From sequence record NZ_CP040051.1: 64,000 nt of DNA. One strand, written 5' to 3'. The DNA comes from a plasmid. Positions 4,546-43,542 of this stretch are shown here, one piece after another. The notes under the pieces were generated by a model. It made no database searches, was not told the origin of the DNA, and was given only the letters and a program-made list of their open reading frames with translations. Positions within the stretch are counted from its first letter, which is position 1. Each line of letters opens with the position of its first letter. Both the position numbers and the translations under genes were made by a program.

Positions 4546-5364
4546 GCACTGTTGCAAATAGAGATTTGAGTCGATGAAGTTCCTTTTTAAAAGTGCTTAG
4601 AGACCGAAAACCCTGTTGATTAGACACACTTCACCTTGAGGCTGACCATAATAAAATGACGATGCTTGTCCTTTACGTAGTGCACGCATGACTTCAATAC
4701 CTTTAATTATGGCATAAGCCGTCTTCATAGATTTGAATCCTAATGTGGCCCTGATGATCCGCTTTAACTTACCATGATCACATTCAATGACATTATTTTT
4801 ATACTTAATCTGCCTGTGCTCAATATCTACTGGACATTTTCCTTCTCGCTTTAACCGTGATAAAGCATGGCCATAGGTCGCTGCTTTATCTGTATTGATG
4901 ACCCGTGGAATTTGCCATTTTTTCACCGTATTGAAGATCTTTCCTAAAAAACAATAGGCTGATTTACTGTTCCGTCTAGCGGAAAGGTAAAAGTCAATCG
5001 TATGACCACGTTGATCAACTGCACGATACAGGTAAGTCCATCGCCCCTTCACTTTGATATAAGTCTCATCCATATGCCATGAATGTAAATCTGTAGGATT
5101 ACGCCAATACCAGCGTAAGCGTTTTTCCATTTCTGGAGCATAACGCTGAACCCAACGATAAATTGTGGTGTGGTCAACATTCACACCTCGTTCAGCGAGC
5201 ATTTCTTGAAGTTCACGATAGCTGATGCCATATTTACAATACCAACGAACAGCCCAAAGAATGATTTCACCTTGAAAGTGCCGACCATGGAAGGGATTCA
5301 TCTGCTGTATCTCGAAATAAATAAGATATTTAGCTTATCATGTCAGCCTATTTGCAACAGTGCC
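4546..5364 (-). mobile_element. IS6-family insertion sequence (IS1006/IS26-like), copy 1
   Basis: Terminal IRs GGCACTGTTGCAAA at 4546 and TTTGCAACAGTGCC at 5351-5364. The internal 234-aa transposase is strongly similar to IS26 Tnp26. No 8-bp target duplication. Confidence 0.9.
4597..5301 (-). CDS. tnpA: IS6-family DDE transposase
   Basis: MNPFHGRHFQGEIILWAVRWYCKYGISYRELQEMLAERGVNVDHTTIYRW... matches the IS26-family transposase. Confidence 0.9.
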   Translation of the reverse strand: MNPFHGRHFQGEIILWAVRWYCKYGISYRELQEMLAERGVNVDHTTIYRWVQRYAPEMEKRLRWYWRNPTDLHSWHMDETYIKVKGRWTYLYRAVDQRGHTIDFYLSARRNSKSAYCFLGKIFNTVKKWQIPRVINTDKAATYGHALSRLKREGKCPVDIEHRQIKYKNNVIECDHGKLKRIIRATLGFKSMKTAYAIIKGIEVMRALRKGQASSFYYGQPQGEVCLINRVFGL

Positions 5365-20028: not shown

Positions 20029-20064
20029 TTTCGCCCATAGATTCCCTCTGTGGGCTTTTTTTGA
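20029..20064 (+). terminator. Rho-independent terminator downstream of the HNH gene
   Basis: GCCCACAG..CTGTGGGC stem plus T7. Confidence 0.55.
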
Positions 20065-22450: not shown

Positions 22451-23332
22451 TTGACTGATTGGTATATGACGACAGATAAGCATGAAGTCCTGCTACGAAT
22501 GCGAGCCATCGAGCTGCTTGCTTACTGGGAAGGTCGTTTGGTTACCAATCGTTTGATGAGCTGGTTTGGGCTGAGTCGACAGCAGGCTTCTGCGGATATC
22601 AAGCGTTACAATACGCTGTATAACCCCGATGCCTTGATTCATGACCCCTCCGTAAAAGGCTATGTGCCTAAAGCCACGTTTCAACCGGTGCTGACTACCG
22701 TACATATCAATGAATATCTCAATATGCTCTCGGGCTTGGTCAGTGAATCGCATGCGCTGATTGCGATGCCAGAACCGAATCTTGCAGCAGTTCAATTACC
22801 TGATCGCAGTGTACGTCCTGAAGTGATTCGGGAAGTTTTGCGTGCCTGCCGCAACCAAAGTACTTTAAAAATGATTTATGCCTCGATGCAGAATCCGCAG
22901 TGGCATGAACGCATGATTTCCCCACATACCCTGGTGTATACCGGTTTTCGCTGGCATGTCCGTGCCTATTGCCATCAGAGCAAGCAGTTTAAGGACTTTT
23001 TACTCTCCAGAATTGATCGCACACCTGTTGTGGTGGCGATTGAGTCAGTAGACCCTGCTCAGGATCAGCAATGGCATGAAGAAATTCTACTGACGCTGAT
23101 CCCTAATCCAAAATTGAATGAAGCTCAAAAAGTGCTGGTCGAAAAAGACTTCGGCATGCCTGATGGCAGATTACAGATTCCGGTCAAAAAAGCCCTGGCT
23201 CACTATACCTTGCAGCGATATCAGGCCGCGATCACGCTGGCTGAGGCGGATGATGCCTTGAAATATCCCTTGGTACTACAACGCTCAGATATCGAAAAGC
23301 TGTCGTCTTACCTGTTTGATCAGGCCTCATAG
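22451..23332 (+). CDS. brxR: BrxR-type WYL-domain transcriptional regulator (HTH-WYL-WCX)
   Basis: 293 aa, positioned immediately upstream of brxA. An N-terminal HTH and a central WYL-like region (YTGFRWHVRAYCHQS) are present. Confidence 0.75.
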   Translation: MTDWYMTTDKHEVLLRMRAIELLAYWEGRLVTNRLMSWFGLSRQQASADIKRYNTLYNPDALIHDPSVKGYVPKATFQPVLTTVHINEYLNMLSGLVSESHALIAMPEPNLAAVQLPDRSVRPEVIREVLRACRNQSTLKMIYASMQNPQWHERMISPHTLVYTGFRWHVRAYCHQSKQFKDFLLSRIDRTPVVVAIESVDPAQDQQWHEEILLTLIPNPKLNEAQKVLVEKDFGMPDGRLQIPVKKALAHYTLQRYQAAITLAEADDALKYPLVLQRSDIEKLSSYLFDQAS

Positions 23333-23342
23333 GAGATTGACC

Positions 23343-23954
23343 ATGTTAGAACAATTTCATTATGACAGTGACCTGATTGGTGGCTCCCTGATGGTGCGTG
23401 AAAGCCGGCTGATCGCGGATCTGTTATTACGAGAAGCGACTCCAGAACAATGGCATCAGGCAATTCAGATTGACAATATTCTGCAAAAAAGAACGCCTGC
23501 TTCAGCCCAACGTAACGCCACTGCCATTCGTAAGCGTCTTGAGCGCTTAGAGCCTGATTTCTGGAAAGCACTACGTGATGGGGATGATGAGCTGGCGACC
23601 CAGGTGGCTTTTTGTGGTGCACTGGAACGCAACCTGTTGCTGCTTGAGTTTATGGAAACGGTGATGAGGGATGCCTATATCTCTCAGGCGCAACACTTGG
23701 ACAGTTATATCTGGTCAGATTTTTTGGATGAACGCTCACAACGTGATCCGGATATCTGTGATTGGAAAGAGTCCAGCAAGAAAAAAATGGGGCAGGTGGT
23801 GTTTCGCATGCTGGCAGAAGCCGGTTACTTAAAAAGTACCCGTAAGCTGGAGTTGCAGCGCGTGATCGTCAGAGCAGAGCTGCGTAGCCTGTTGGAAGAA
23901 CATTATAAACAACGCATTAAAAGATCTATGGAAGTGTCGCTATGGACGCGGTAG
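23343..23954 (+). CDS. brxA: BREX protein BrxA (DUF1819)
   Basis: About 200 aa, the first gene of the brxABC-pglX-pglZ-brxL array, with an AGGAG RBS. Start chosen at MLEQFHYD. Confidence 0.75.
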   Translation: MLEQFHYDSDLIGGSLMVRESRLIADLLLREATPEQWHQAIQIDNILQKRTPASAQRNATAIRKRLERLEPDFWKALRDGDDELATQVAFCGALERNLLLLEFMETVMRDAYISQAQHLDSYIWSDFLDERSQRDPDICDWKESSKKKMGQVVFRMLAEAGYLKSTRKLELQRVIVRAELRSLLEEHYKQRIKRSMEVSLWTR

Positions 23955-23970: not shown

Positions 23971-24546
23971 ATGAGTCAAACAATACATGAGCGTCTGAAC
24001 CAGATTCCAGAGCGAATTCTTTCCACTGAGTTTCTCACTGGACAAGGATTGGGCAATGAAATTGGCTTCTGGATTTTTGATTATGCGCCTGAAGATGAGT
24101 TGAAAGTGCGCGAATATCTGCATTTTCTAGACGGGATGCTAGAGAAAAAACACAGTCAGCTGAAGGTGGTGAATATCAACCTGCTGCAAGCCGTGGTGGA
24201 CTATCTGGCTGAGCGTAACTTCATCGATAAAGCTATTCAAATGCAAAAAGCCAAAGGCGATGAGGTGCTGCTCAAAGCGCTGAAAGGCCCACTGCATATG
24301 GATAAGTTCGCGCCCTATCTGGTGAGTAAATATGCCACCAATGCGCAAGATATTGTGTTGATGACTGGGGTTGGGTCGGTTTGGCCACTGTTACGTGCCC
24401 ATCACTTATTGAACAGTTTGCATTCGTTACTGGGACATAAGCCAGTGGTGCTGTTTTACCCAGGTTATTACGACGGTCAAGCGATGAGTTTATTTGGAAA
24501 AATTCCAAGCAACAATTACTACAGAGCATTCAGATTAGTGCCTTAA
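23971..24546 (+). CDS. brxB: BREX protein BrxB (DUF1788)
   Basis: 191 aa in the conserved position. Confidence 0.75.
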   Translation: MSQTIHERLNQIPERILSTEFLTGQGLGNEIGFWIFDYAPEDELKVREYLHFLDGMLEKKHSQLKVVNINLLQAVVDYLAERNFIDKAIQMQKAKGDEVLLKALKGPLHMDKFAPYLVSKYATNAQDIVLMTGVGSVWPLLRAHHLLNSLHSLLGHKPVVLFYPGYYDGQAMSLFGKIPSNNYYRAFRLVP

Positions 24547-24587: not shown

Positions 24588-27500
24588 ATGAACATTAAAG
24601 AACTTTTTTACAAGCCATTAGATCGTGCAATTAACGGGGTGGTGAAGGCAGATCAGGATGATAATGCCACGGTTTACCAGGAGCTGGATGAGTACGTGGT
24701 CACCAATGAGCTGGAAAAGCATTTTCGTGACTTTTTCCAGTCCTATGGTACAGACCTCAGCGACCCTTCGATTGCCAATCGTGTCGGCGTGTGGATTTCT
24801 GGCTTCTTTGGTTCAGGTAAATCACATTTCCTGAAAACCTTGTCGTATATTCTGGCCAATAAAGTGGCACGTGACGCGGAAGGTAACGAACGCAGTGCTG
24901 CAGAATTCTTTGATGAAAGCAAAATCCGGGATGCGTTTATCCGTGCGGATATTGGTAAAGCGGTTAGTCATCATGCCGATGTCATCCTATTTAATATCGA
25001 CAGTAAAGCCAGCTCCAATGATGATGGTAATCCGATTCTGAATGTGTTTTTACGCGTGTTTAACGAATATCAGGGTTTTAGTGCCGATCATCCACATATT
25101 GCACATATGGAACGTCACCTGAGCCAGAAAGGGGTGTATGAGCGCTTTAAACAGGCTTTTGAAGAATCTAGCGGCATGTCTTGGCTAGAAGAACGTGACG
25201 GCTATCAGTTCTATCAGGATGATGTCGAAACCGCAATTTCCCAAGCCCTCAACTTATCAGCAGAAGCGGCACACAAGTGGTTTGAGGATTCTGAGCAGAC
25301 TTTTAGTGTTTCGGTCGAAAACTTCTGTCAGTGGGTGAAAGAATACCTAGACAGCAAAGGACCCCAGCAACGCATATTGTTTCTGGTGGATGAGGTGGGG
25401 CAGTTTATTGGCAGTGATACCCGCTTGATGCTGACACTGCAAACCATTACTGAAAACTTGGGTACGATCTGTAAAGGCCGCGCTTGGATTATCGTCACCT
25501 CACAGGCAGACATCGATGCTGTTTTAGGTGAGATGTCTTCTTCCAAAGCCAATGACTTCTCCAAGATTGCTGGACGTTTTAAAACCCGTTTATCGCTGTC
25601 CAGTTCAAATACCGATGAAGTCATCCAGAAACGTTTATTACGTAAAACCCCAGAAGCTGAAGCATTGCTCAGATCGGTGTTTGAGCAAAAGGGCGATATC
25701 TTAAAAAATCAGATTACCTTTGACCGTTCAGGCCCAACCCTCAAGAACTATGAGGGGCCAGACAGTTTTATTCATAACTATCCTTTTGCGCCGTACCATT
25801 TCCAGCTGGTGCAAAAAGTATTTGAAGAAATCCGTAAAGTCGGTGCGACTGGTGCACATCTGGCCTATGGTGAACGGTCCATGCTGGATGCGTTCCAGAT
25901 GGCCGCGAATGCGATTGCCACCGATGAAGTCGGTGCCCTGGTTCCTTTCCACCGCTTCTATACTTCAGTCGAAGGCTTCCTGGATACTGCAGTGAAGCGT
26001 ACCATCGACCAGGCAGGGCAGAATAAGACCCTGGATGGTTTTGATGTGCAGATGCTGCGTACCCTGTTCATGATCCGCTATGTCGATATCATCAAAGGTA
26101 CGCTGGATAACCTGGTGACTTTATCGATTGAGAAAATTGATGAAGATAAGCTGGCATTGCGCAAGCGGATTGAAGAGAGCCTGCAGCGTCTAGAAAAAGA
26201 GAGCCTGATTACGAGGAATGGCGATGAGTTCCTGTTCCTGACCAATGAAGAGCGGGACATTACCCGCAAAATTAAAGCCACAGACTTAGCAGCTTCAGAA
26301 GAAAATAAAGAGTTAGCCAATCTGATCTTTAAAGATTTACTGCGCGATCAGAACAAATACCGCCATCAAGCCAACAAGATGGACTATCAGATTGGTCGTT
26401 TTCTGGATGGTCATAGCCTGGATGGCAAGTATGAGAGTGATTTGAAAGTTGAAATCATTTCTCCACTGGATACGGAATACAACCTCTACACAGAAGCTTT
26501 CTGTATTGGTAAGAGCGCCGAGGCCGAAGGGCAGATACTGTTTAAACTGGCAGACGATAAACAGTTCTTTAATGAACTGCGCACCTGGCTGAAAACCAAT
26601 AAATTTATTCGGTTAAATGATGATGGCACTCAGTCCGATATCACCCGTATCCTGGCAGACCGTGGCCGTGAGAATCAGGAGCGTAAAAAACGTCTGCGTG
26701 TCCGGGTCGAAGAAATGTTGCTGGAGGCGGAAAGTTATGCCTTGGGGCAACATCTACAACTTTCATCTTCAAGTCCAACCACCAAGCTGGATGAGGCTTG
26801 TCGTTATTTGCTGGAAAACACTTATACCAAACTGAGCTATTTGCAGGTCTATCAGCAGGATGTCTGGCGTGAACTGAACGCCGTCTTGACTGTGGATGAT
26901 ATGGCGCAGCTCGGATTGTCTCTGGATGGCGGGCAGAGCAATCCGAAAGCCCTACAGGATGTCGAACAGTACATCTCGCTGCGTGCAACCGGTACCGAAC
27001 GTATTCTGGTGTCAGATGTGGTGGATCGTTTTGCCAAACGTCCTTATGGCTGGCCAGATGCCGAGATTTTACTGTTGGTGGGTCAGCTGGCTGCGATGGG
27101 GCGGATTTCACTGCAGTTAAATGGCGGCAGCTTACAGTTAAAAGATGCCTTTGAGCCTTTACAAAACAGCCGCCGTCGCCGTGATGTTTCCATTATTAAA
27201 AAGCGCCAGACTGATGATCAGGTATTGAAACAGGCACGCCAACTCACCCAAGACCTATTCTCGGCCATGGGACCAGCGACTGAGAAAGAGCTATTTGAAT
27301 TCTATTTGAAGCATTTTAAGACTTGGTTAGCCAACTTTAAGTCGTACAAAAGCAAAACAGATGTCGGGCAGTTCCCGGGCAAGAAAGTGATTGAAAAGTC
27401 GATTCTGACTTTGGAACGTCTGCTGGCGAATAGCGATAGCTTCGATTTCTTTAAGGCCGTGGTCGAGAACAAGGACGACTATTTGGATCTGGAAGAAGAT

Positions 27501-28268
27501 TATCGTGACATTCATGAATTCTTTAGCAACCAGATGCCAAGCTGGCAGCAACTGCAACAGGCCTTACGTCATTTTGAGAAAAACAAACAGGCGCTGGGCA
27601 GTGATGAGCTGGCGAAAAAAGCCCTCTCCGAATTACATCGCATTTCGACCACTGAATCACCCTATGGCCTGTTAAATAAAGTCGCTGATTTGGTTCGTAC
27701 AGTGGAAAGCGTCAATCAACGCTTGCTGACTGAAAAGCGCAGTCAGGCGCTAGAGCAAATTGATGACAAGATCAAGCAGCTGGAAGCCGAGATTAAAAAC
27801 AGTGGTATTGCCACCGCTGAGCTGAGTAACAAGCTACTGCGTCCGCTGCAATTGCTCAAAGCGGATATCGAAGTGGAAAGCAGCCTGTCCACCATCTATA
27901 TGCTGCAAACCCAAACCGCCATTGAACGTTTTGATGAAGCCTTATATGAGCTGGAACGAGAAGTTCAGGCTGAAATTCAGCGTCAGGCCAAAGCGGCACA
28001 ACTGGCTCAGAGCAAAGCAGAGAGTGTAACCAACACTGCAACCACCTCCAGCCCAGCAACATCAGAACCTGCTGCGATTCTGGTACAGCCTGCGACAGCC
28101 GTAGTGCCACCGAAACCAGTGGTGGAAGTCGATGTCGCCAGCATTTACAGCAAAACCTCCAGCAGTGTCTATCTGGAAACGGAAGAGTCAGTGGATCAGT
28201 TTGTAGAAGCACTCAAAGCTGAATTGAAAAAAATTGTGAGTGATAAAAAGCGTGTGCGTATCCGCTAA
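24588..28268 (+). CDS. brxC: BREX ATPase BrxC/PglY
   Basis: 1226 aa with an N-terminal P-loop GFFGSGKSHFLKT. Confidence 0.85.
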   Translation: MNIKELFYKPLDRAINGVVKADQDDNATVYQELDEYVVTNELEKHFRDFFQSYGTDLSDPSIANRVGVWISGFFGSGKSHFLKTLSYILANKVARDAEGNERSAAEFFDESKIRDAFIRADIGKAVSHHADVILFNIDSKASSNDDGNPILNVFLRVFNEYQGFSADHPHIAHMERHLSQKGVYERFKQAFEESSGMSWLEERDGYQFYQDDVETAISQALNLSAEAAHKWFEDSEQTFSVSVENFCQWVKEYLDSKGPQQRILFLVDEVGQFIGSDTRLMLTLQTITENLGTICKGRAWIIVTSQADIDAVLGEMSSSKANDFSKIAGRFKTRLSLSSSNTDEVIQKRLLRKTPEAEALLRSVFEQKGDILKNQITFDRSGPTLKNYEGPDSFIHNYPFAPYHFQLVQKVFEEIRKVGATGAHLAYGERSMLDAFQMAANAIATDEVGALVPFHRFYTSVEGFLDTAVKRTIDQAGQNKTLDGFDVQMLRTLFMIRYVDIIKGTLDNLVTLSIEKIDEDKLALRKRIEESLQRLEKESLITRNGDEFLFLTNEERDITRKIKATDLAASEENKELANLIFKDLLRDQNKYRHQANKMDYQIGRFLDGHSLDGKYESDLKVEIISPLDTEYNLYTEAFCIGKSAEAEGQILFKLADDKQFFNELRTWLKTNKFIRLNDDGTQSDITRILADRGRENQERKKRLRVRVEEMLLEAESYALGQHLQLSSSSPTTKLDEACRYLLENTYTKLSYLQVYQQDVWRELNAVLTVDDMAQLGLSLDGGQSNPKALQDVEQYISLRATGTERILVSDVVDRFAKRPYGWPDAEILLLVGQLAAMGRISLQLNGGSLQLKDAFEPLQNSRRRRDVSIIKKRQTDDQVLKQARQLTQDLFSAMGPATEKELFEFYLKHFKTWLANFKSYKSKTDVGQFPGKKVIEKSILTLERLLANSDSFDFFKAVVENKDDYLDLEEDYRDIHEFFSNQMPSWQQLQQALRHFEKNKQALGSDELAKKALSELHRISTTESPYGLLNKVADLVRTVESVNQRLLTEKRSQALEQIDDKIKQLEAEIKNSGIATAELSNKLLRPLQLLKADIEVESSLSTIYMLQTQTAIERFDEALYELEREVQAEIQRQAKAAQLAQSKAESVTNTATTSSPATSEPAAILVQPATAVVPPKPVVEVDVASIYSKTSSSVYLETEESVDQFVEALKAELKKIVSDKKRVRIR

Positions 28269-28315
28269 CTCGGGTTAGGGATATCGGCATCAGTCATTAA
28301 TTAAAGGTTTAAAGA

Positions 28316-31300
28316 TGAATACCAGTAATATTAAAAAATACGCACCGCAAGCACGTAACGATTTTATCGCAGCGATGCGCAAGCAGGCCGCCAAATATGG
28401 CATCACCGCAGACAGCATTTTACGGCTGAACAGAAAGGCGACTTGCTGCTGATTGGCGATCAGGTTTTTCCGCTATCAGTCATGAAACCACGTGACAAGC
28501 TGATCAAACGCATTCAAACCAGCAGTTTTGAGCAGACGATTGATTATATCGCTTACAGTTGGTTTAACCGTCTCTGTGCGATTCGCTACATGGAATGTAA
28601 AGGCTTACTGGATCATGGTCGTCGTGTGCTGAGTAGTGCCGATGGCAGTGCAGGCTTGCCACAGATTCTGGAAGAATGTCTGGATATTGACCTACCAGGT
28701 TTAGATGCCAGCCGTGTGGCTGAGCTTAAGCTGGATGGCAATAAAGACGAAGAGCTATATCGGGAGATATTACTGGCGCAGTGTCATGCTTTAAATCAAG
28801 TCATGCCACTCTTGTTTGAACAGGTTTCTGATGAGTCAGAACTGTTACTACCTGACAATTTAACCAAAACCGATTCCTTGATCCGTGATTTAGTGAGCAG
28901 CATTCCGGAAGAAGACTGGTCGGATGTACAGATTATTGGCTGGCTGTATCAGTTCTATATTTCTGAAAAGAAAGACCAGGTGATTGGTAAAGTCGTCAAG
29001 AGTGAAGACATTCCTGCCGCGACACAGTTATTCACCCCAAACTGGATTGTGAAGTATTTGGTGCAAAACAGTGTCGGTCGTTTATGGATGATGGCACAGC
29101 CTGATAGTACGCTGGCCAATAATTGGGAATATTATATTCAACCCGCTGAACAAACGGATGAGGTCAATGCACAGTTAAAACAGCTGATTGATGTGCGGAT
29201 CAGTGAAGATGGCGATACTTTAAACCCTGAAAGCATTACGGTACTCGATCCGGCCTGTGGTTCGGGGCATATTCTGGTGGAAGCCTACGATTGCTTAAAA
29301 GCGATTTATTTGGAACGTGGTTACCGCAGTCGTGATATTCCACGTTTGATTCTGGAAAACAACCTGTACGGGATTGATATTGATACCCGTGCCGCGCAGT
29401 TAGCCAGTTTTGCGCTATTGATGAAAGCGCGTGAGGATGACCGCCGTTTATTTAGCAATCCACCAAAACTGAATATTGTTGCGTTGCAAGACAGCCAACC
29501 TGAGCGTTTGGAAGCATTCAGTCAGGACTTGGCAAGTACTGGTATTGCGCAGGCAGATTTACAAGAATTACTGGATTTATTTGAACACTCTTCAACCTTT
29601 GGTTCTTTGATTCAAATCCCTGCAGCATTCGCTCATAAGCTGCCTGATTTAGAAAGCAAGCTGAATACAGCAGCAGCATCAGGCGATATCTTTAGTCAGC
29701 AGTCAGCACAAGAACTGTTACCGTTCGTTCAGCAAGCCATGTTATTGGCCAAACAATATGATGCTGTGATTGCGAATCCGCCGTATATGGGCGGTAAAGG
29801 CATGAACACAGCACTGAAAGATTTTGCTAAAAAGAAATTCCCTGACAGCAAGTCAGACCTATTTGCCATGTTTATTGAGCGTGGTTTTGGATGGTGTAAG
29901 GACAGTGGTTTCAATAGCATGGTGACCATGCAAAGCTGGATGTTCCTGTCCTCTTATGAAGCGATGCGTGAAAAGCTACTTTCCAATAATTCTCTTGTAA
30001 GCCTAATTCAATTACCTTATGACGGCAAAGGTCCAACAGCTATGGGAATTAGCTTTGGTATTTCTGTTTCTATTCTTCAGAAAAATAAAATTAATGGATT
30101 AATTGGGGATTTTGATTGCTTTAGGTATTTTGAACTCACAGAAGATGGCATCCCAAAACAATTCCCTAGTCTAAATGAACGTAATGTAAAAACGAAACCA
30201 GATGACTTTAAGAAAATTCCAGGAAGTCCTGTTGCTTATTGGGTGAGTGATAAGGTACGAGAAATTTTTGAAACTAGCTCTTCTTTAAATGATGTAGCAG
30301 ATGCTCGACAAGGTCTAGCTACTACAGATAACAATCGCTTCTTACGTTTATGGCAAGAAATTAATTTTCAAAGAATTGGTTTTAATATAAAAAATCGGGA
30401 ATATGCCCAATTGTCGGAGAAAAAATGGTTTCCACATAATAAAGGGGGGGAGTTTCGTAAATGGTTTGGTAATCAAGAATATGTAGTGAATTGGGAAAAT
30501 GATGGACAGGAAATAAAAGATAATATACTTTCCAGATACTCTTATTTAAAAACTCCTGATTTTGTTGCGAAAAATCAACAATTTTATTTTAAGAGTTCTG
30601 TGAGTTGGACTGCGATTACATCTGCTAAATTTTCTGCTCGACGAGATTTTGGTGGCTTTATTCCCTCAAATGCTGGAATGAGTGTTTATGCTGATAATGA
30701 CACATTAAAATTTTTAAATTCTTTGATGAATAGCATACTTTGCGATGCGTTCTTAAAAATTATTAGCCCTACATTAAATTTCGGTGCTGGTGACATTAGT
30801 AAGATTCCTTTGAAAGTAAATGAAACAAACAAATCAAAGATAAGCTATTTACATGATGAAGCTATTAAATTCTCCAAAATTGATTGGGACTCGTATGAAA
30901 CTTCATGGGACTTTACTCGAAACCCAATTATTCGTACTCAACAACCAAATCTAGAACAAGCATTTAATACTTGGCAACAGCAAAATACTAACGCCGTGGC
31001 TGAAATGAAACGTCTGGAAGAAGAAAACAACAAGCTGTTTATTGAGGCTTATGGTTTACAGGATGAACTCACTCCTGACGTACCAGATGAGCAAATCACT
31101 TTAACCCGTGCCAACCGTGAAAAAGACAGCCAGCGTTTAGTGTCTTATGCACTTGGTTGCATGATGGGACGCTATAGTCTGGATGAATCGGGTCTGATCT
31201 ATGCCCATGCAGGCAACCAAGACTTTGATGCCAGCCGTTATCAAACATTCCCAGCCGATGCAGACGGTATTATTCCACTCACCGAAATGCACTGGTTTGA

Positions 31301-31862
31301 AGATGATGCCACCCATCGTATCCAAGAGTTCTTAACTGCGGTTTGGGGTAAAGACACACTAGACGCTAATATGCTGTGGTTGGCAGAAAGCTTGGACAAA
31401 AAAGCCAGTGAAACAGCTGAAGATACCATTCGCCGTTACTTAGCCAGCAAGTTCTATAAAGACCACATGCAAACCTATAAAAAGCGTCCGATCTACTGGT
31501 TATTTAGCAGTGGTAAACAGGGGGCTTTCCAAGCATTGGTGTACTTGCACCGCTATAACGAAAGTACCTTGGCGCGTATGCGTACTGAATACGTCATGCC
31601 ACTGATTTCCAAAATGGCTGCCTATGCTAATTCTCTAGAAACAGCAAAAGAAAGCAGTGACTCTGCGGCTGAAATCAAACGCATCGAGAAAAAACTGCAA
31701 GATTTACATAAGCAACAAGCTGAACTGAGTAGCTTTGAAGAAAAACTGCGTCACTATGCTGATCAGCGTATATCACTGGATCTAGATGATGGGGTGAAAG
31801 TGAACTACGGCAAGTTTGGGGACTTGTTGGCTGAAGTGAAAGCTGTGACGGGGGAGAAATAA
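28316..31862 (+). CDS. pglX: BREX N6-adenine DNA methyltransferase PglX (BrxX). The reading frame is disrupted by a 1-nt frameshift about 42 codons in.
   Basis: ATG at 28316 encodes MNTSNIKKYAPQARNDFIAAMRKQAAKYGITADSILRLN and then hits TGA. The remaining 1139 aa continue in another frame (…QKGDLLLIGDQ…, WFNRLCAIRYM, NPPY motif VIANPPYMGGKG). Confidence 0.8.
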
Positions 31863-33799
31863 TGCAATTAAGAAGCCTAAATGAAATTTTTGAAAATCGA
31901 CTGATTCGGATCCCTGACTATCAAAGGGGATATGCATGGCGTAAACAACAACTTAAAGATTTCTGGGAAGACTTAACCTTACTTGAAGCAGATCGCGTTC
32001 ATTATACGGGGGTTATTACCTTAGAAGCAGTAGACCGTAAAACTTGGTCGAAGTGGGAAGACGATGAATGGCTGATTGATGATCTTGATTATAAGCCCTA
32101 CTTTGTCGTGGATGGTCAGCAGCGATTAACGACAGCGATTATTTTAATACAGGCGATTATTGAAACAGTTCCTGAAGGAAAAAGTATCGCAAATCAGTTT
32201 GTTTCTGATTTAAAGGCAAAGTTTGTTCAAAAAAAACCAACGGATGGCATTCGTGAAAGTTATATCTTCGGCTATGAAAAAGATAATCCAAGTGATGAGT
32301 TTTTAAGAACTAAAATTTTTGGTTTGCAGTCTCATACTAATCAATTGCAGGAAACGCTGTATACACGCAATTTATTCAATGCAAAGAAATTCTTTAAAGA
32401 AAAATTAGCGGAACTGAGCTTTGAAGAAATCACGGTTTTGTACAAAAAATTGACGCAAAAATTGCGTTTTAACTTGTATGAAATTGATGATGAGATCGAC
32501 GTATTTGTTACATTTGAAACCATGAATAATCGTGGCAAATCCTTGACCAATTTGGAATTACTGAAAAACCGATTGATTTATCTGTCGACATTATATCGTG
32601 ACAATCAGGGGCGTTCTAAGCTTCGAAAAAATATTAATGATGCGTGGAAAACCATTTATGAGTATCTAGGTAAAAATCCTGAAAAACCTTTGCCAGATGA
32701 TGAGTTCTTAAAGAACCATTGGATTATGTATTTCAAGTATAGTCGGGAAAAAGGGGATGATTATAAAAAATTCCTGTTGGATGAAAAATTTAATGCCCGT
32801 TGTATCACGCATCCAAAAAATGCCCAGGACACCTTGAAAATTGAAGAGATTCAGGATTATGTAGCAAGTCTTCAACAGTCTGTTATGAATTGGTTCTATT
32901 TACATAATCCTTATTTCCCAGTAGCAAATAATCTTTCTGATGATGAGCAATTATGGCTAGATCGACTAGGACGTTTGGGTTTTAATGCATTTAGACCTCT
33001 AATCTTAGCTGCTTATAATACCAATACTCCTGCAACCAAGATCTCTGAATTGCTGAAAGTTGCAGAGCGGTTTGCTTTTACTTTATTTAGTTTGAGTCAA
33101 CGACGTGCCAATACAGGAGACTCAGCAATTTATGGTTTAGCACGTGAGCTTTTAACCGGGAGAAACACAATCGATGCAACGATTAATTCAATAGAGGGAT
33201 TAATCACACGATTCTTTGATCCACATAACTATTTCACTTATATCGAAGACAAATACAAGTTTAGGGATGGATTCTACTCATGGAAGGGTATTCGTTATTT
33301 CCTTTATGAATATGAACATTATCTCAAAGAGAAAGGAAAGAATCCTACAACCAAATTAATGTGGAATGAGTTTACTGAAAGCTTGGAGGGTTATGTAACT
33401 TTAGAGCATATCTATCCACAAAAAGATACAGATCCATACTGGGTTAGTAAATTTGGCCATCTTGATGGGCAACAACGAAAATGGCTTACACATTCTTTAG
33501 GTAACTTATTGCCATTATCTCGTTCAAAAAATTCTTCATTACAAAATGACAGTTTTGATTTAAAGAAAAATAATGACGAAGGTATTGGATATTACAATGG
33601 ATCTGTTTCGGAAAATGAAGTCAATCTTAAGAATGATTGGACACCACAAGAAATCTTAGAACGAGGTCTAGAGCTACTTCGTTTTATGGAGGAAAGATGG
33701 GACGTTCAATTAGGAGATGAAGCATTTAAACGAAAACTACTTCACCTTGATAGTATCCAGATATTTGTTCCTCAAGATCAAAAAGAGGTAGTTGCATGA
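31862..33799 (+). CDS. brxU: GmrSD-family type IV restriction enzyme (DUF262 + DUF1524), BrxU-like
   Basis: DUF262 motif VVDGQQRLTT and a C-terminal His-Me finger LEHIYPQ. The start overlaps the pglX stop (TAATG) and the stop overlaps the pglZ start (ATGA). Confidence 0.8.
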   Translation: MQLRSLNEIFENRLIRIPDYQRGYAWRKQQLKDFWEDLTLLEADRVHYTGVITLEAVDRKTWSKWEDDEWLIDDLDYKPYFVVDGQQRLTTAIILIQAIIETVPEGKSIANQFVSDLKAKFVQKKPTDGIRESYIFGYEKDNPSDEFLRTKIFGLQSHTNQLQETLYTRNLFNAKKFFKEKLAELSFEEITVLYKKLTQKLRFNLYEIDDEIDVFVTFETMNNRGKSLTNLELLKNRLIYLSTLYRDNQGRSKLRKNINDAWKTIYEYLGKNPEKPLPDDEFLKNHWIMYFKYSREKGDDYKKFLLDEKFNARCITHPKNAQDTLKIEEIQDYVASLQQSVMNWFYLHNPYFPVANNLSDDEQLWLDRLGRLGFNAFRPLILAAYNTNTPATKISELLKVAERFAFTLFSLSQRRANTGDSAIYGLARELLTGRNTIDATINSIEGLITRFFDPHNYFTYIEDKYKFRDGFYSWKGIRYFLYEYEHYLKEKGKNPTTKLMWNEFTESLEGYVTLEHIYPQKDTDPYWVSKFGHLDGQQRKWLTHSLGNLLPLSRSKNSSLQNDSFDLKKNNDEGIGYYNGSVSENEVNLKNDWTPQEILERGLELLRFMEERWDVQLGDEAFKRKLLHLDSIQIFVPQDQKEVVA

Positions 33800-36420
33800 A
33801 TCTGGATCAATTACAAAAAGGTCTGGAACAGGCTTTCTACACTGAAAAACATCGAATTGTCTTCTGGTACGATGCGGAACAGTCATTTACTGAAGAAATC
33901 AAAGCCCTAGAGCTAAATGATGTCCAGATTCTGAATATGGCAGAAGAGTCGAGTCTGGCGATCAAGCTCAAACTGGAACTGCAAGATCAGCAGGGCAAAT
34001 ACCTGCTGTATTTCCCAAGTGCTGAGCCTGAAACCGAAAAAGACTGGTTACTGGACATCAAGCTCTATTCACGCAGCTTCTATGCCGATCGTTTCTCGAT
34101 TATTTTCAATGAGCTGGGTTTACAGCAGCAGAGTCTAAGAGAACATCTGGCCAAACGTGAAGAATTCCTCAAAGCCAAAGCTCGTCTGAGTACATTGAAA
34201 CGCTATATCCAGCCTGATGCAGATGAACAGAATCTGGATATGGCCATGATTGCAGCTGTGGTCAAGGCTGACAGTGCCGAACTCATGCATATCGTTCTGG
34301 CACTGGCAGATGAAATGGTACAGCAGAACCTGGCTCTGGAAGTCAATCCAGAATCCTTTGCTGAACTGGAAAAGTTCCAACTAGTGCCAGCTTTAGTCAC
34401 AGCATTACAGGCGGAAATTGGTTATCCAGCATCGGTTGAAGAATTGAATGGGGAAGCACCATTCAAGCTCGGTACGTTCTTTATCCGTTTGATGACTACA
34501 GGTTTCTGTGAAAGCTTGGGCGATATCCCCGTATGGGCTCAGGAACTGGTGATGTCATCCGTCAGCTCCCGTGCGACGGCTAGAGCCTTTTTGTCGCGCT
34601 GGAGAGACAGTTCTAAATACTACCCAACCTTCGATACACTCTCCCAGACCGTGGCAAATGCACTGCGGATCCAAGAAAAGGTCGGGGTCTTTGATCTGGA
34701 GCAACTGCTCGATGTCATGACTTTTGAAGTGATTGAACAAAAGATCATTGTCGATCTGGCCAGCCAGATCCCTGCAGCAACCAAAGCTGAACTGGAACAT
34801 TTCAGAACGATTATTTCTACACGTCTGGATGGCTATTGGGCTTCCAAACATAAGGACGATGCAACCCGCCGTAAATACCGTACCGTCTATACAGCGTTGC
34901 AGGCAGCGATTGAGCTGTTCAGTTTACGACTACAGTTTGATTCCGGTTTCTATTTTGACTCCAGCGAAGCCTTGTATAAAGCCTATGAACAGGAGCTGTA
35001 TCGCTTTGATATGGCCTATCGTCATTACAGTGCAGCCTCTCAGCGAGCTCATGTTGATATCCTGAAAAAACTCGATGAAGAAGTCGAAAATTGCTATTCC
35101 TACTGGTTTATTGATCACCTGGCACGAAACTGGGGGGGTCGGATTGAAGCTGAGCAACGCTTGAATGTCTGGAAAGTGGCAGATATCCCAAATCAGCAGA
35201 ACTTCTACGATACCCACGTCAGACCCTTACTCAATTCTGCAACGAAACGCCGTATTGTGGTAATTATCAGTGATGCTTTTCGCTATGAAGCTGCGGTAGA
35301 GCTGCGTGATCGTATCAATGAAAAGCGTTATTCCGAAGCGACCTTGTCTTCACAGCTAGGCGTTGTTCCAAGTTACACCACACTTGGCATGGCCTCGTTG
35401 TTGCCGCATCAGACTTTGGAGTACAAAGAGGCCGCAGGGGATGATGTTTTAGTAGATGGGCAGTCCAGCAAAGGGACTGCAGCACGATCCAAAATTCTGG
35501 CTGCCTATAATGGATTGGCGGTTACCGCTGAAACGGTAAAAGGTTGGTCGCGTGATGAAGGCCGTGAAGCGCTGAAAGATCATGAGCTGATTTACGTTTA
35601 TCACAACGTGATTGATGCTCGGGGAGACAGTGCCTCGACAGAATCAGAAACCTTTATGGCGGTGGAACATGCCATTGAAGAGCTGACTGAACTTAGCCGC
35701 AAAATCTTGATGCATTTCAATATTTCTACCCTGTTGATCACAGCCGACCATGGCTTCTTGTTCCAGCAAAGTAAACTGGAATCTGCGGATCGTTCAAGCT
35801 TGACTGAAAAACCGACCAATGCATTGAAAAGCAAAAAACGCTATGTGATTGGGCATGGTTTACCAGAGAGCAAAGAAGCATGGAAAGGCTCAACCCAAGC
35901 TACGGCAGGCACACGATCTGCGACTGATTTCTGGATTCCAAAAGGGGCGAACCGTTTCCATTTTGTAGGAGGCTCACGTTTCGTGCATGGCGGCATCATG
36001 CCTCAGGAAATCGTAGTGCCTGTACTAACGGTAAAACAGCTGCGTGGTGAAAAGGCTGGACAGCGGACCAAGCGTAAAGTTGAGGTCATTTCTACCAAAT
36101 CCACGCTGAAAATGGTCAATAACATCCAGAAGTTTGATTTGATGCAAACTGAAGCTGTCAGTGAGCTGGTCATGCCAGTGACCCTGTCGATTGCCATTTA
36201 TGATGGGGATATCAAAGTATCTAGTGAAGAAACCTTGACCTTTGATAGCAGTACCGACTCTGTTGCCGATCGGGTTAAACAGGTCAGGCTGTCATTGTCC
36301 GGTACTGATTTTGACCGTAAGAAGGATTACTTCCTAGTGCTGAAGGACAAAGACCTGAATATCGAAATGCAACGCTATAAGGTCACCATTGATCTGGCAT
36401 TTACCGATGACTTCTCCTGA
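33796..36420 (+). CDS. pglZ: BREX PglZ (alkaline-phosphatase superfamily)
   Basis: 874 aa in the conserved position between pglX and brxL. Confidence 0.8.
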   Translation: MNLDQLQKGLEQAFYTEKHRIVFWYDAEQSFTEEIKALELNDVQILNMAEESSLAIKLKLELQDQQGKYLLYFPSAEPETEKDWLLDIKLYSRSFYADRFSIIFNELGLQQQSLREHLAKREEFLKAKARLSTLKRYIQPDADEQNLDMAMIAAVVKADSAELMHIVLALADEMVQQNLALEVNPESFAELEKFQLVPALVTALQAEIGYPASVEELNGEAPFKLGTFFIRLMTTGFCESLGDIPVWAQELVMSSVSSRATARAFLSRWRDSSKYYPTFDTLSQTVANALRIQEKVGVFDLEQLLDVMTFEVIEQKIIVDLASQIPAATKAELEHFRTIISTRLDGYWASKHKDDATRRKYRTVYTALQAAIELFSLRLQFDSGFYFDSSEALYKAYEQELYRFDMAYRHYSAASQRAHVDILKKLDEEVENCYSYWFIDHLARNWGGRIEAEQRLNVWKVADIPNQQNFYDTHVRPLLNSATKRRIVVIISDAFRYEAAVELRDRINEKRYSEATLSSQLGVVPSYTTLGMASLLPHQTLEYKEAAGDDVLVDGQSSKGTAARSKILAAYNGLAVTAETVKGWSRDEGREALKDHELIYVYHNVIDARGDSASTESETFMAVEHAIEELTELSRKILMHFNISTLLITADHGFLFQQSKLESADRSSLTEKPTNALKSKKRYVIGHGLPESKEAWKGSTQATAGTRSATDFWIPKGANRFHFVGGSRFVHGGIMPQEIVVPVLTVKQLRGEKAGQRTKRKVEVISTKSTLKMVNNIQKFDLMQTEAVSELVMPVTLSIAIYDGDIKVSSEETLTFDSSTDSVADRVKQVRLSLSGTDFDRKKDYFLVLKDKDLNIEMQRYKVTIDLAFTDDFS

Positions 36421-36449
36421 TAACGAATTAACGATAGAGCGTAGCCTAC

Positions 36450-38489
36450 ATGGAATCTGCTAACGATAAAGAACTGGATCAGCTGCTGAATGAACACTTT
36501 GCTGGGCGGGTGGTACGTAAGGATCTGACTAAACTGATCAAAGAAGGGGCAAATGTCCCTGTCTATGTACTCGAATACCTGCTAGGGATGTACTGTGCCT
36601 CGGATGATCCAGAGATCATTGAACAGGGACTACGTAACGTAAAGACCGTACTGGCTGAGAACTACGTCCGACCGGATGAAGCCGAGAAGGTGAAATCCCT
36701 GGTCCGTGAACGGGGCAGTTATAAGGTCATTGATCGGGTGACTGTAAAACTGAATGAGCGTAAAGACAAATACGAAGCATCATTTAGTAATCTGGGCATC
36801 AAAGATGCCGAAATCTCGGCAGGCATCGTCAAAGAGTATGAAAAATTACTTGTTGGTGGTATCTGGGTCATTGCTACGCTCAGTTATTATTTTGAAGAAG
36901 GACAACCCAATTCTCCATTTGGGGTGAGCTTACTCAAGCCGATTCAAATGCCGAATATGAATATGGATGAACTCTTCAGTGGCAGAGCAGCATTAAGCAC
37001 GGATCAGTGGCGCGAGAGTTTAATCCGTTCGATCGGCATGGAACCGGCTTCGCTAAAAGAGGACGTGCAATGGCACCTATTAGCGCGTATGGTTCCGTTC
37101 GTTGAAAATAACTATAACGTTTGTGAATTGGGACCACGTGGTACCGGGAAAAGCCATATTTACAAAGAGTGTTCACCGAATAGTATTTTAGTCTCCGGTG
37201 GGCAAACCACTGTCGCCAATCTGTTCTATAACATGAGTAGCCGCCGTATTGGTCTGGTGGGGTTGTGGGATGTGGTGGCTTTTGATGAAGTTGCCGGTAT
37301 TTCCTTTAAGGACAAAGATGGCGTTCAGATCATGAAAGACTTCATGGCCTCAGGATCTTTTGCCCGTGGTCGTGAACAGATGGAAGCCTCAGCTTCGATG
37401 GTTTTTGTGGGTAATATTAACCAAAGTGTTGAATCCTTGGTGAAGACTAGCCACTTATTGGCTCCTTTTCCTGAAGCAATGATCGATTCAGCATTCTTTG
37501 ATCGCTTTCATGCCTATATCCCGGGTTGGGAAATTCCAAAAATGCGTCCGGAATTCTTTACTAACCGTTATGGTCTAATCGTTGATTATCTGGCTGAATT
37601 CTTCCGGGAAATGCGTAAGCGTAGTTTTGCGGATGCCATTGAGAAGTACTTTAAGCTCGGCAACAACCTGAATCAGCGCGATGTGATTGCCGTTCGCAAG
37701 ACGGTTTCCGGATTGATGAAGCTGCTCTACCCACACGGTCAGTTTAATAAAGAAGATGTACGCCTGTGTCTGGAATATGCACTGCAGGTCCGCCGTCGCG
37801 TCAAAGAGCAGCTGAAGAAAATTGGTGGCATGGAATTCTATGACGTTCATTTCAGCTATATCGATAATGATACCTTAGAAGAACATTTTGTCTCAGTCAA
37901 AGAGCAGGGTGGTGGCGGACTGATTCCAGATGGTCCAGCGAAACCAGGTTTTCTGTATACCATCGGACTCAGTAATAAAGGCATGCCTGGCTTGTATCGC
38001 TTAGAGCTTCAAGTCACCAAAGGCTCAGGTAAGCTTGCAACTTCAGGCCTCTGGAACTCCAGCAGTGCCAAAGAACAAGTCAAGATTGCCTTTGACTACT
38101 TCAAAGCGAACGCCTCTAGAATATCGGGTGGCAGCAAAGTCATGGAGCATGACTTCCATCTGCATGTGGTGGAATTACAGAATACCGGGCCACTTAGTCA
38201 TCTGGCTTTGCCGAGTCTAGTCGCTTTTGCTTCAGGCTTGCTCGGACGGTCAGTACAGAATCAGATGGTGGTCCTGGGAGATATGAGCCTGGGTGGAAAC
38301 GTCACACCGGTTGAAAGTATTGCTGAATGTCTTCAGGTTGCATTCGATGCCGGAGCCAAGAAAGTCGCTTTACCGATGAGCAGTGCGGCAGATATCCCAA
38401 CCATTCCAGTTGAACTATTTACTAAGTTCCAGACCAGCTTTTATGCAGATCCGGTAGATGCTGTGTTTAAGGGGCTAGGGGTGGATTAA
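36450..38489 (+). CDS. brxL: BREX Lon-like protease BrxL
   Basis: 679 aa, the last gene of the array. Lon-like ATPase/protease fold signatures are present (GPRGTGKSH). Confidence 0.8.
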   Translation: MESANDKELDQLLNEHFAGRVVRKDLTKLIKEGANVPVYVLEYLLGMYCASDDPEIIEQGLRNVKTVLAENYVRPDEAEKVKSLVRERGSYKVIDRVTVKLNERKDKYEASFSNLGIKDAEISAGIVKEYEKLLVGGIWVIATLSYYFEEGQPNSPFGVSLLKPIQMPNMNMDELFSGRAALSTDQWRESLIRSIGMEPASLKEDVQWHLLARMVPFVENNYNVCELGPRGTGKSHIYKECSPNSILVSGGQTTVANLFYNMSSRRIGLVGLWDVVAFDEVAGISFKDKDGVQIMKDFMASGSFARGREQMEASASMVFVGNINQSVESLVKTSHLLAPFPEAMIDSAFFDRFHAYIPGWEIPKMRPEFFTNRYGLIVDYLAEFFREMRKRSFADAIEKYFKLGNNLNQRDVIAVRKTVSGLMKLLYPHGQFNKEDVRLCLEYALQVRRRVKEQLKKIGGMEFYDVHFSYIDNDTLEEHFVSVKEQGGGGLIPDGPAKPGFLYTIGLSNKGMPGLYRLELQVTKGSGKLATSGLWNSSSAKEQVKIAFDYFKANASRISGGSKVMEHDFHLHVVELQNTGPLSHLALPSLVAFASGLLGRSVQNQMVVLGDMSLGGNVTPVESIAECLQVAFDAGAKKVALPMSSAADIPTIPVELFTKFQTSFYADPVDAVFKGLGVD

Positions 38490-38597
38490 TTTCATATCTG
38501 TCTGGAAGAGTTACAGTAGATTGTTTTAAATTCAGTTTCTCAAGTTAAACACCATGTTGTAAAAGCATAATACTGCCTCTTTTAAAGAGCTAGTATT

Positions 38598-38918
38598 TTA
38601 GGGGGGGATTACCGCTGCAGGTCGCAATTTTCCCCGATGTTCTATATAAAAATTCTCTGTTAGACGTTCAAAAAAATCATGTATATCTTGTGTAGTATTA
38701 TTTAATTGAGCAAAGACGTCCTTCAAAGAAAGCACATAAGCCTGAAAATTTTTAACTAGTATGTCGCTGTTTTTACATCCCCCATGACCATCCACTACGT
38801 AACAAAAATATAGATTTTCATTATCAGTAAGGTTCCCTACAGCATCGATTCCAAATTTTTCTGGTGCGCTAAGATTCTGACATAAGGAAAAGGAGTTTAT
38901 TAATATGCTTTTGGCCAT
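38598..38918 (-). pseudogene. N-terminal fragment of a PP2C-like Ser/Thr phosphatase
   Basis: Contains the PPM motif VVDGHGG. Only 106 aa, ending at a C7 tract. Confidence 0.45.
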
Positions 38919-39053
38919 TGTTTTATGATCGCTTGAATTACTTGTAAAGCTCTTTCTCTTGAGCCAAATCTACATTGATCTTCCATTATGATTTCAAAAT
39001 CAGTTAATTCAGTGAGTTTTTTAAATTGATCAGATAAGTAATCTTTGAGTTCT
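38919..39053 (-). pseudogene. 3-prime remnant of an unknown gene truncated by the IS6 insertion; its stop overlaps the PP2C-like start
   Basis: Open frame …ELKDYLSDQFKKLTELTDFEIIMEDQCRFGSRERALQVIQAIIKQWPKAY* runs from the IS boundary. Confidence 0.4.
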
Positions 39054-39873
39054 TGGCACTGTTGCAAATAGGGATCTGAGTCGATGATTTTCCCTTCAAA
39101 AAAGCTTAGAGACCGAAAACTCTATTTACTAGCCAAACTTCTCCTAGAATATTACCGTTATAAAATAATGAAGCTTGTCCTTTGCGTAGAGCACGCATAA
39201 CCTCAATACCTTTAATTGTGGCATAAGCCGTTTTCATAGACTTGAATCCCAACGTAGCCTTGATGATCCGTTTGAGCTTGCCATGATCACATTCAATCAC
39301 GTTATTCTTGTATTTAATCTGTCGATGCTCCAGGTCTTCAGGACACTTTCCTTCCTGTTTTAGTCGCGACAAAGCACGGCCATAGGTATGAGCCTTATCA
39401 GTGTTTATGACTCGTGGAATCTGCCATTTTTTGACATGATTCAAAATCTTACCAAGAAAACAATAAGCTGAATGGGTATTTCGTCTAGCAGAAAGATAGA
39501 AATCAAGAGTATGGCCACGTTGGTCAACTGCACGGTATAGATATGCCCATTTGCCATTCACTTTTACGTAAGTTTCATCCAGATGCCATAAATGTCGATC
39601 TGTAGGATTACGCCAATACCAACGTAAACGTTTTTCCATTTCTGGAGCATAACGCTGAACCCAACGGTAAATAGTCGTGTGATCAACATTCACACCCCGT
39701 TCGGCCAGCATTTCCTGCAGTTCACGATAGCTAATGCCATATTTACAATACCAGCGCACAGCCCAAAGAATGATTTCGCCCTGAAAATGCCGACCATGGA
39801 AAGGATTCATATGCTGCACCTTTAGCTAAAACAGTCTTCAGCTTACCATTCGTGGTTATTTGCAACAGTGCCA
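39054..39873 (-). mobile_element. IS6-family insertion sequence (IS1008/IS1006-like, divergent from copies 1 and 3), copy 2
   Basis: IRs GGCACTGTTGCAAATAG at 39054 and TTTGCAACAGTGCC ending at 39873. A 237-aa transposase. Confidence 0.9.
39106..39819 (-). CDS. tnpA: IS6-family DDE transposase
   Basis: About 90% identical to the copy 1 transposase. Confidence 0.9.
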   Translation of the reverse strand: MQHMNPFHGRHFQGEIILWAVRWYCKYGISYRELQEMLAERGVNVDHTTIYRWVQRYAPEMEKRLRWYWRNPTDRHLWHLDETYVKVNGKWAYLYRAVDQRGHTLDFYLSARRNTHSAYCFLGKILNHVKKWQIPRVINTDKAHTYGRALSRLKQEGKCPEDLEHRQIKYKNNVIECDHGKLKRIIKATLGFKSMKTAYATIKGIEVMRALRKGQASLFYNGNILGEVWLVNRVFGL

Positions 39874-42526: not shown

Positions 42527-42658
42527 TTCCGTCAGACCTTATAGTTTTCCATGCATGTGCATCATGAATGACATGCATGGAATCCTCTAAAACGGCACAT
42601 TATCTGTAAAACCGATCTATCTGTGTAGGCATCGTGTATAGGTTCAACAAACCTGCCT

Positions 42659-43475
42659 GGCACTGTTGCAAATAGAGATTTGAGTCGATGAAGTTCCTTT
42701 TTAAAAGTGCTTAGAGACCGAAAACCCTGTTGATTAGACACACTTCACCTTGAGGCTGACCATAATAAAATGACGATGCTTGTCCTTTACGTAGTGCACG
42801 CATGACTTCAATACCTTTAATTGTGGCATAAGCCGTCTTCATAGATTTGAATCCTAATGTGGCCCTGATGATCCGCTTTAACTTACCATGATCACATTCA
42901 ATGACATTATTTTTATACTTAATCTGCCTGTGCTCAATATCTACTGGACATTTTCCTTCTCGCTTTAACCGTGATAAAGCATGGCCATAGGTCGCTGCTT
43001 TATCTGTATTGATGACCCGTGGAATTTGCCATTTTTTCACCGTATTGAAGATCTTTCCTAAAAACAATAGGCTGATTTACTGTTCCGTCTAGCGGAAAGG
43101 TAAAAGTCAATCGTATGACCACGTTGATCAACTGCACGATACAGGTAAGTCCATCGCCCCTTCACTTTGATATAAGTCTCATCCATATGCCATGAATGTA
43201 AATCTGTAGGATTACGCCAATACCAGCGTAAGCGTTTTTCCATTTCTGGAGCATAACGCTGAACCCAACGATAAATTGTGGTGTGGTCAACATTCACACC
43301 TCGTTCAGCGAGCATTTCTTGAAGTTCACGATAGCTGATGCCATATTTACAATACCAACGAACAGCCCAAAGAATGATTTCACCTTGAAAGTGCCGACCA
43401 TGGAAGGGATTCATCTGCTGTATCTCGAAATAAATAAGATATTTAGCTTATCATGTCAGCCTATTTGCAACAGTG
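42659..43475 (-). mobile_element. IS6-family element copy 3 (near-identical to copy 1) with a frameshifted transposase
   Basis: IRs at both ends. The tnp reading frame is split (42711..43067 and 43058..43414) by an A6-to-A5 run near 43065. Confidence 0.85.
42711..43414 (-). pseudogene. tnpA: IS6-family transposase, frameshifted
   Basis: Two overlapping 118-aa ORFs that together equal the copy 1 Tnp. Confidence 0.8.
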
Positions 43476-43542
43476 CCTTCTATAATCCACAACTTTTTCT
43501 GAAGGGGTTTTAACCAGCTTGCCCCCATTTCTTTTACTTGGT

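Follow-up and report, generated by a model that had tools for sequence, protein, structure and literature searches.

The stretch of DNA analysed here (the window, 64,000 nucleotides) is large-plasmid DNA of the Acinetobacter baumannii pA297-3 family and carries a complete type I bacteriophage exclusion (BREX) operon, brxR-brxA-brxB-brxC-pglX-GmrSD-pglZ-brxL. The methyltransferase gene of this operon, pglX, is split across two reading frames by a net -1 nucleotide (nt) shift near 28420-28450. We traced the shift to position 28423, where the window has a single C and every relative examined has a CC doublet; the deletion was seen in this sequence only. From the comparison with relatives we infer a technical cause, with a probability of about 0.6: the missing C would be a sequencing-consensus error, made in base calling or polishing. 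In that case an otherwise perfect pA297-3-type BREX-1 pglX would have lost one C of its codon-37 doublet in the assembled sequence only, and the plasmid would encode a normal PglX of 1182 amino acids (aa) and a functional BREX system. A real and very recent loss of function is the less probable of two serious explanations.

The deletion in pglX codon 37

The split gene consists of the following parts.

28315..28452, plus strand: 5' fragment of pglX, with ATG at 28315, 36 native codons (M1-L36), 9 out-of-frame codons (RLNRKATCC) and TGA at 28450-28452, as given by translation, PADLOC and alignment
28423, plus strand: the lesion, a single C (the surviving one is 28423) where relatives have CC, in codon 37 (CCG, Pro)
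28434..28436, plus strand: an AAA run of ancestral length, which is not the lesion
28425..31862, plus strand: the remainder of pglX, codons 38-1182 and TAA, in the -1 frame, with the NPPY motif and the Eco57I and N6_Mtase domains

The short open reading frame (ORF) is translated as MNTSNIKKYAPQARNDFIAAMRKQAAKYGITADSILRLNRKATCC and comprises 45 codons followed by TGA, of which only the first 36 are native PglX. The long -1 frame is open from well upstream of 28425 to the TAA at 31860-31862 and encodes ...AEQKGDLLLIGDQVFPLSVMKPRDK... through to the PglX C-terminus; the earliest candidate starts within this frame are TTG 28443 (codon 44) and ATG 28482 (codon 57). These values replace the start at 28316, the short ORF of 42 codons and the intact protein of 1181 aa that had been proposed in an earlier, sequence-only reading of this DNA. 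The central claim of that reading, that PglX is split by a one-base deletion and otherwise intact, is borne out by translation, alignment and profile matches.

To place the missing base, we aligned the site with pA297-3, CP033753 and the 94.6%-identical pYUSHP10-1, and compared about 20 further loci base by base. The window reads TTACGGCT and every relative examined reads TTACCGGCT, and thus one of the two Cs in the doublet has been lost. Addition of one C yields a gene of 3,549 nt that is identical in DNA to pA297-3 pglX and encodes 1182 aa. The sequence-only reading had instead restored one A in cagAAAgg. The frames would indeed fuse in this way, but the actual lesion, CC to C, lies 11-13 nt upstream. 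We rejected a repair in the A run, since the AAA run (CAGAAAGG) is invariant in all aligned relatives and an added A would alter four residues (P37R/A38L/E39N/Q40R, that is, PAEQ to RLNR at residues 37-40).

The two pieces together account for a whole PglX. With the PADLOC PglX and type IIG profiles, the 45-aa fragment matches positions 1-36 and the long ORF matches from position 47-50 onward; the PADLOC PglX match (E = 0, in two pieces as written) covers 1-36 and 50-1171. The long ORF contains the Pfam domains Eco57I, N6_Mtase and MmeI_Mtase, the translation includes ANPPYMGG (the NPPY motif), and PglX residues 1-1181 align to the solved BrxX/PglX structures 8ZEK, 9EWZ and 8C45 with E = 0. 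Judged by its N6-adenine methyltransferase core and its full-length collinearity, the gene is a PglX/BrxX methyltransferase; it departs from the single uninterrupted ORF (~1,150-1,230 codons) of this family only by the split at codon 37. Inside pglX, a G7 tract at 30444-30450 encodes a conserved KGGE motif and is the most slippage-prone site in the gene; among the loci compared, the G7 codons are found only in this allele group.

The structures of E. coli BrxX and Salmonella PglX (8ZEK, 9EWZ, 8C45/8Q56) show what the break would remove. The first 17 residues differ from theirs only at residue 4, MNT.NIKKYAPQARNDF being identical in E. coli BrxX, and the order of the N-terminal (NTD), methyltransferase (MTD), target recognition (TRD) and C-terminal (CTD) domains is the same, NTD-MTD-TRD-CTD (PMC11842806). 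In contrast, the TRD and the linker of residues 35-45 diverge from the Acinetobacter protein, and E. coli BrxX has a 5-residue insertion exactly at the site of the window's frameshift. The 36 native residues correspond to the N-terminal alpha-helix of the BrxX NTD, and the frame is broken in the linker that precedes the three-stranded sheet (PMC11842806).

The deletion was sought among relatives at several levels. A plasmid search with an 801-nt query returned 126 Acinetobacter plasmid records, 125 of which cover at least 80% of the query. The deletion is in none of the 40 matches listed of these 125, which span 802 nt against the window's 801, and one listed match, from a visibly error-ridden assembly, spans 803 nt. 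The window's lineage is marked by BrxC A759V. For the exact BrxC protein the index holds 191 blocks, and the 24 longest contigs with the A759V allele, which were read, fall into four layouts, each with CC at the lesion site in its representative (loci and contigs compared are given L numbers here). L007 represents 20 more contigs, each listed with a pglX that is intact at 1182 aa. The missing C aside, L007-L009 show zero mismatches to the window over the shared stretches, and L025 and L027 (both over 21.2 kb) and L012 likewise show no mismatch, while L010 has two further one-base gaps. A 35-mer with the deletion has no exact match in GTDB species-representative genomes or JGI metagenome contigs, and the intact 36-mer, which served as positive control, matches in three Acinetobacter representatives. 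Exact-protein look-ups of the 45-aa fragment and of PglX begun at ATG 28482 or TTG 28443 found no record and are uninformative, since the window's private Sul2 variant, too, is recorded in an unrelated contig only and the source assembly is thus probably not indexed.

Private differences and the cause of the deletion

We tiled the window against its nearest relatives, namely pA297-3, pNDM-9, NGKM01000014.1, CP175864.1 and LFYW01000002.1. All bases but those at four places, 20055, 28423, 43059 and 63243, have a match in one or more of these relatives. The private differences are three one-base contractions of mononucleotide runs and one substitution, with no private insertions. Besides the pglX lesion, they are as follows.

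20055..20061: a T7 run (T8 in all relatives, including those 94-95% identical), an intergenic T tract after a hairpin-like inverted repeat (GCCCATAGA...TCTGTGGGC)
43059..43063: an A5 run (A6 in all relatives) in copy 2 of the IS6-family insertion sequence (IS) IS1008 (42658-43477)
63243, minus strand: a private substitution in sul2 (62938-63750), giving Sul2 R170C

Over 38 kb shared with CP175864.1 (L027, L016), the comparison shows no substitutions, no insertions and three one-base deletions. The artefact is favoured because the differences from the nearest relatives are almost all one-base run contractions, a pattern that looks like the signature of long-read or flow-chemistry consensus error and not of divergence. 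Spontaneous indels are usually a minority of mutations, so three contractions against one substitution are the reverse of real short-term divergence. There is also no secondary decay: the other BREX genes are identical to those of relatives, and so is pglX once its C is returned.

The IS1008 contraction is telling in its position. It splits the 234-aa transposase into open frames of 129 and 121 codons, and it lies at column 403 of 821, the centre of the 820-bp repeat; the copy at 4544-5364 is intact and otherwise differs from copy 2 by one base. Thus the A-run deletion inactivating an IS6-family transposase, which the sequence-only reading had reported, is present as A6 to A5. Short-read polishing classically fails at the centre of near-identical repeats, where reads are not uniquely placed, and a deletion in mid-repeat suggests that the assembly retains long-read indel errors. 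Strongly affected assemblies exist in the same plasmid family: L013, L014 and L036 (CP046596.1) have many homopolymer indels, and their BREX genes are shattered.

A published plasmid may bear on this question. In Table 1 of PMC10117892, p1VB16141 (CP040051) has its pglX marked as incomplete, interrupted or frameshifted, and this is its only BREX gene marked defective. The same paper assigns the pattern of no mer, no uric-acid cluster, P450 present and DUF262-type BREX to the sequence type (ST) ST622 group (pIOMTU433, the p1KSK series and p1VB16141) and to pB11911 (ST149); among the plasmids with this pattern p1VB16141 alone has pglX marked defective, the type of lesion not being described there (PMC10117892). 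The plasmid resembles the window in family and in module pattern, and we treat it as a lead only. Its isolate set was sequenced with Ion Torrent or HiSeq together with MinION R9 reads and assembled with Unicycler and Pilon (PMC9240704). If the window is the p1VB16141 record, the artefact explanation gains weight.

Several observations weigh against a consensus error. A CC doublet is not a typical site of homopolymer error, and this one is among ~8,740 two-base runs in the window. Of the runs of at least 6 nt (142 in the window, 42 of them at least 7 nt), 141 keep the length seen in relatives, counted by present length, which places the A6 to A5 contraction outside this class. Every G7 tract that is contracted in the noisy assemblies (L013, L014 and L036) has its full length in the window. 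The run lengths so kept indicate that the assembly is accurate overall. The window contains only one copy of pglX, so polishing with short reads ought to have removed an error from this gene. Among real spontaneous indels, homopolymer contractions are also the commonest, and within this lineage real inactivation of pglX is proven by the IS events described below. Loss of function and assembly error, the two alternatives named by the sequence-only reading, both stand, and the IS1008 deletion lends plausibility to the second.

If the deletion is real, which we hold possible and yet less probable than an artefact, the missing C of codon 37 cuts PglX short beyond its N-terminal helix, and both BREX methylation and defence would be abolished. 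Precedent for such a loss is found in relatives of the window, where pglX has been inactivated repeatedly, by two IS events within the lineage and by IS30 in a 91.5%-identical A. pittii plasmid.

Window-equivalent 29542-29551: IS insertion in pglX of L009/L012 (LFYW01000002.1)
Window-equivalent 29471: IS1007-adjacent truncation of pglX, with the rest of the operon removed, in L008 (AAYLUP040000018.1)
Near codon 704: IS30-family insertion in pglX of the A. pittii plasmid pApiAE13c, L037 (CP139283.1)

These three disruptions are independent and structurally unambiguous, and they cannot be base-calling errors. As an observation in its own right, pglX appears to be a repeated insertion-sequence target in relatives of this plasmid. 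Frequent pglX disruptions are credited to Goldfarb et al. 2015 in the citation given by PMC9122589. In Acinetobacter sp. NEB394, deletion of pglX abolishes methylation and restriction, and the deletions found to slow growth, those of brxR, brxB and pglZ, do not include it (PMC9122589). From this absence of a growth defect, pglX would be a safe gene to lose, and the repeated IS hits on pglX fit these published data. The remainder of PglX is severed from a conserved element, the helix at the N-terminus of the NTD (PMC11842806). The nature of the site likewise agrees with a real event, as it is a doublet and not a long run in an otherwise accurate assembly. The private substitution in sul2 means that some real private change exists; it has an exact match in 0 of 4,410 sul2-bearing plasmid records. 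As a protein, Sul2 R170C has been recorded in one contig only, an unrelated one of enterobacterial type (L035).

Against a real null stand its occurrence in a single sequence and the absence of secondary decay anywhere in the operon. Two more private run contractions occur alongside it with hardly any substitutions, a combination whose rough chance under real divergence is < 5%, assuming the indel share of a mismatch-repair-deficient strain.

A real null might extend beyond PglX, as expression of the GmrSD gene, pglZ and brxL may fall by polarity, unless translation restarts at TTG 28443 or ATG 28482. The ATG of the GmrSD gene shares one base with the pglX TAA (ATAATG), and the start and stop of this gene overlap both neighbours. 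Promoter-like sites in 28000-34000 number 8, fewer than the 15.6 ± 3.9 in shuffled sequences, with no excess ahead of the GmrSD gene; an internal promoter that keeps this gene expressed was considered, and the count offers no excess in its favour. The homologous NEB394 operon is one long transcript (PMC9122589), and a premature stop in a Salmonella BREX gene was inferred to be polar on the next gene (PMC9009780). Because of the overlap with the pglX stop, the lack of a promoter excess and the single transcript of the homologous operon, the stop at pglX codon 46 could be polar on the downstream genes. For these reasons, together with the Salmonella precedent, the statement of the sequence-only reading that BrxU would still be on is not established.

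The protein itself is a GmrSD-family member, with an N-terminal DUF262 (Pfam GmrSD_N, 9.9e-31) and a C-terminal DUF1524 (GmrSD_C, 3.8e-19), both domains of the family thus being present. A phmmer search of the protein against all PDB chains gave no match at E <= 0.001, and it is not close to the crystallised BrxU. 'BrxU' is accordingly a name by position and family, the apparent similarity to the E. fergusonii plasmid BrxU being at family level.

Very unlikely is a leaky or programmed recoding, or a reinitiation, that keeps BREX partly active. A -1 slip at A_AAG (28433-28437) before the TGA would yield a full-length PglX with RLNR for PAEQ at 37-40, and a start at TTG 28443 or ATG 28482 would yield an N-terminally truncated one. 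The required frame change is indeed -1, AGA-AAG-G contains the tetranucleotide A_AAG, which allows low-level -1 slippage in E. coli, and residues 37-40 lie in a linker that varies between Acinetobacter PglX and E. coli BrxX. However, 28423-28449 contains no X_XXY_YYZ heptamer, and the split layout occurs in no homologue examined, all of which are single ORFs. Without a slippery heptamer or a two-ORF homologue, programmed frameshifting at this site is not supported by the sequence. As for reinitiation, no convincing Shine-Dalgarno sequence precedes ATG 28482, only a weak AAGG precedes TTG 28443, and the truncated protein would be without the conserved N-terminal helix.

Weaker still is phase variation, in which reversible slippage of a repeat tract would toggle BREX, as with the S. 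coelicolor G tract. The literature cites switching by a homopolymeric tract in pglX for S. coelicolor and proposes it for BREX systems at large (PMC9122589; PMC6326788), and the window's allele has its G7 tract; but the G7 is at full length, and the lesion lies in a two-base run, short of the ~6-7 nt of a slippage-prone tract, with no length variation at the site among the relatives examined. With neither a repeat tract nor a length polymorphism, we reject phase variation at this site, and the 'phase-variable pglX' of the sequence-only reading falls, as CC is present in every relative and is no contingency tract. In the S. coelicolor Pgl system (Sumby and Smith 2003, to the extent cited in PMC9122589 and PMC9009780), a pglX frameshift likewise switches the system off, but through a long reversible G tract, whereas the window has a CC doublet without length variation. 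The G7 tract was also considered as a phase-variation site and rejected: G6 or G5 is seen only in L010/L013 and L014, assemblies in which other G7 and A8 runs are shortened as well, and these shorter forms are probably sequencing errors.

The BREX operon and its plasmid context

Apart from pglX, the BREX genes are intact, and the GmrSD-family gene stands between pglX and pglZ.

22466-23332, plus strand: brxR (WYL), by PADLOC and Pfam; intact
23343-23954, plus strand: brxA, PADLOC 3.4e-108; intact
23971-24546, plus strand: brxB, PADLOC 4e-72; intact
24588-28268, plus strand: brxC, PADLOC E = 0; intact
31862-33799, plus strand: GmrSD-family (DUF262/DUF1524) gene between pglX and pglZ, by Pfam
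33796-36420, plus strand: pglZ, PADLOC E = 0; intact
36450-38489, plus strand: brxL, PADLOC E = 0; intact

By the PADLOC profiles, all of BrxA, BrxB, BrxC, PglX, PglZ and BrxL are matched, and on these matches the cluster is a type I BREX (BREX-1). The upstream BREX genes show no mismatch to L025 and L027, gene calls agree in loci identical to the window, and 29542-39873 is 100% identical to L012.

The closest described operon is that of pA297-3 (KU744946). It has the same gene order, brxR-A-B-C-pglX-DUF262-pglZ-brxL, and its pglX (WP_005115115.1) is identical over 3,549 nt once the C is added; the same pglX allele is present in pD46-4, pNDM-9 and CP175864.1. The window differs by lacking one C in codon 37 and by lacking ~40 kb adjoining IS1007. 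Specifically, window 1-39873 is collinear with pA297-3 172192-132318, and window 39867-63550 with pA297-3 92510-68826. Because these two blocks map apart in pA297-3, the window is without the ~40 kb beside IS1007 in which the mer and uric-acid modules lie. At 39867-39873, IS1007 (39055-39873) abuts DNA that is ~40 kb distant in pA297-3, and this junction was not found in any of the 21 and 24 related contigs read. Plasmids of the pA297-3 family have been described, together with the two layouts of their BREX operon, one containing the DUF262 gene and one lacking it (PMC10117892).

The type I BREX of Acinetobacter sp. NEB394, whose genes were each tested for function (Luyten et al. 2022, PMC9122589), resembles that of the window in its gene set, in its upstream WYL gene brxR, and in the sizes of BrxB (191 aa) and BrxC (1226 aa), which are the same in both. 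It differs in being a seven-gene operon without a GmrSD gene between pglX and pglZ, and in its intact pglX. The NEB394 motif GTAGAT (PMC9122589) cannot be assumed for the window's allele.

Elsewhere on the plasmid backbone, ~51908-53011 (L016 3691-4794) encodes a 367-aa protein beside a plasmid topoisomerase gene, with a precomputed Pfam match, AcrVA2-like (PF26125). On this match it is a possible candidate for an anti-CRISPR-like gene.

Implications for BREX in Acinetobacter plasmids

The split of pglX is ordinary under either explanation, being a one-base deletion, seen in no relative, that affects a familiar gene in a well-described plasmid family, and it is more likely technical than biological. 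Locating the lesion at C 28423 and not in the A run gives the place to inspect in the reads, and the tally of private differences calls for treating the assembly as one in which some one-base deletion errors remain. Surveys that count 'frameshifted BREX' among Acinetobacter plasmids will give inflated figures unless indel-rich assemblies such as L013, L014 and L036 are filtered out.

A real deletion would, by analogy with NEB394, switch BREX off without cost to the cell (PMC9122589). We consider it rather unlikely that it belongs to a recurrent and possibly adaptive pattern, in which conjugative plasmids of clinical Acinetobacter have BREX silenced specifically through pglX; if true, the plasmid would carry a BREX-null operon with its GmrSD type IV gene left, and the A_AAG slip or reinitiation might give some residual PglX. 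For the biology of this plasmid the finding carries little weight and comes down to a choice in annotation, whether the plasmid is scored as BREX-positive or BREX-null, which in turn affects the predicted phage susceptibility of the host and its uptake of foreign DNA.

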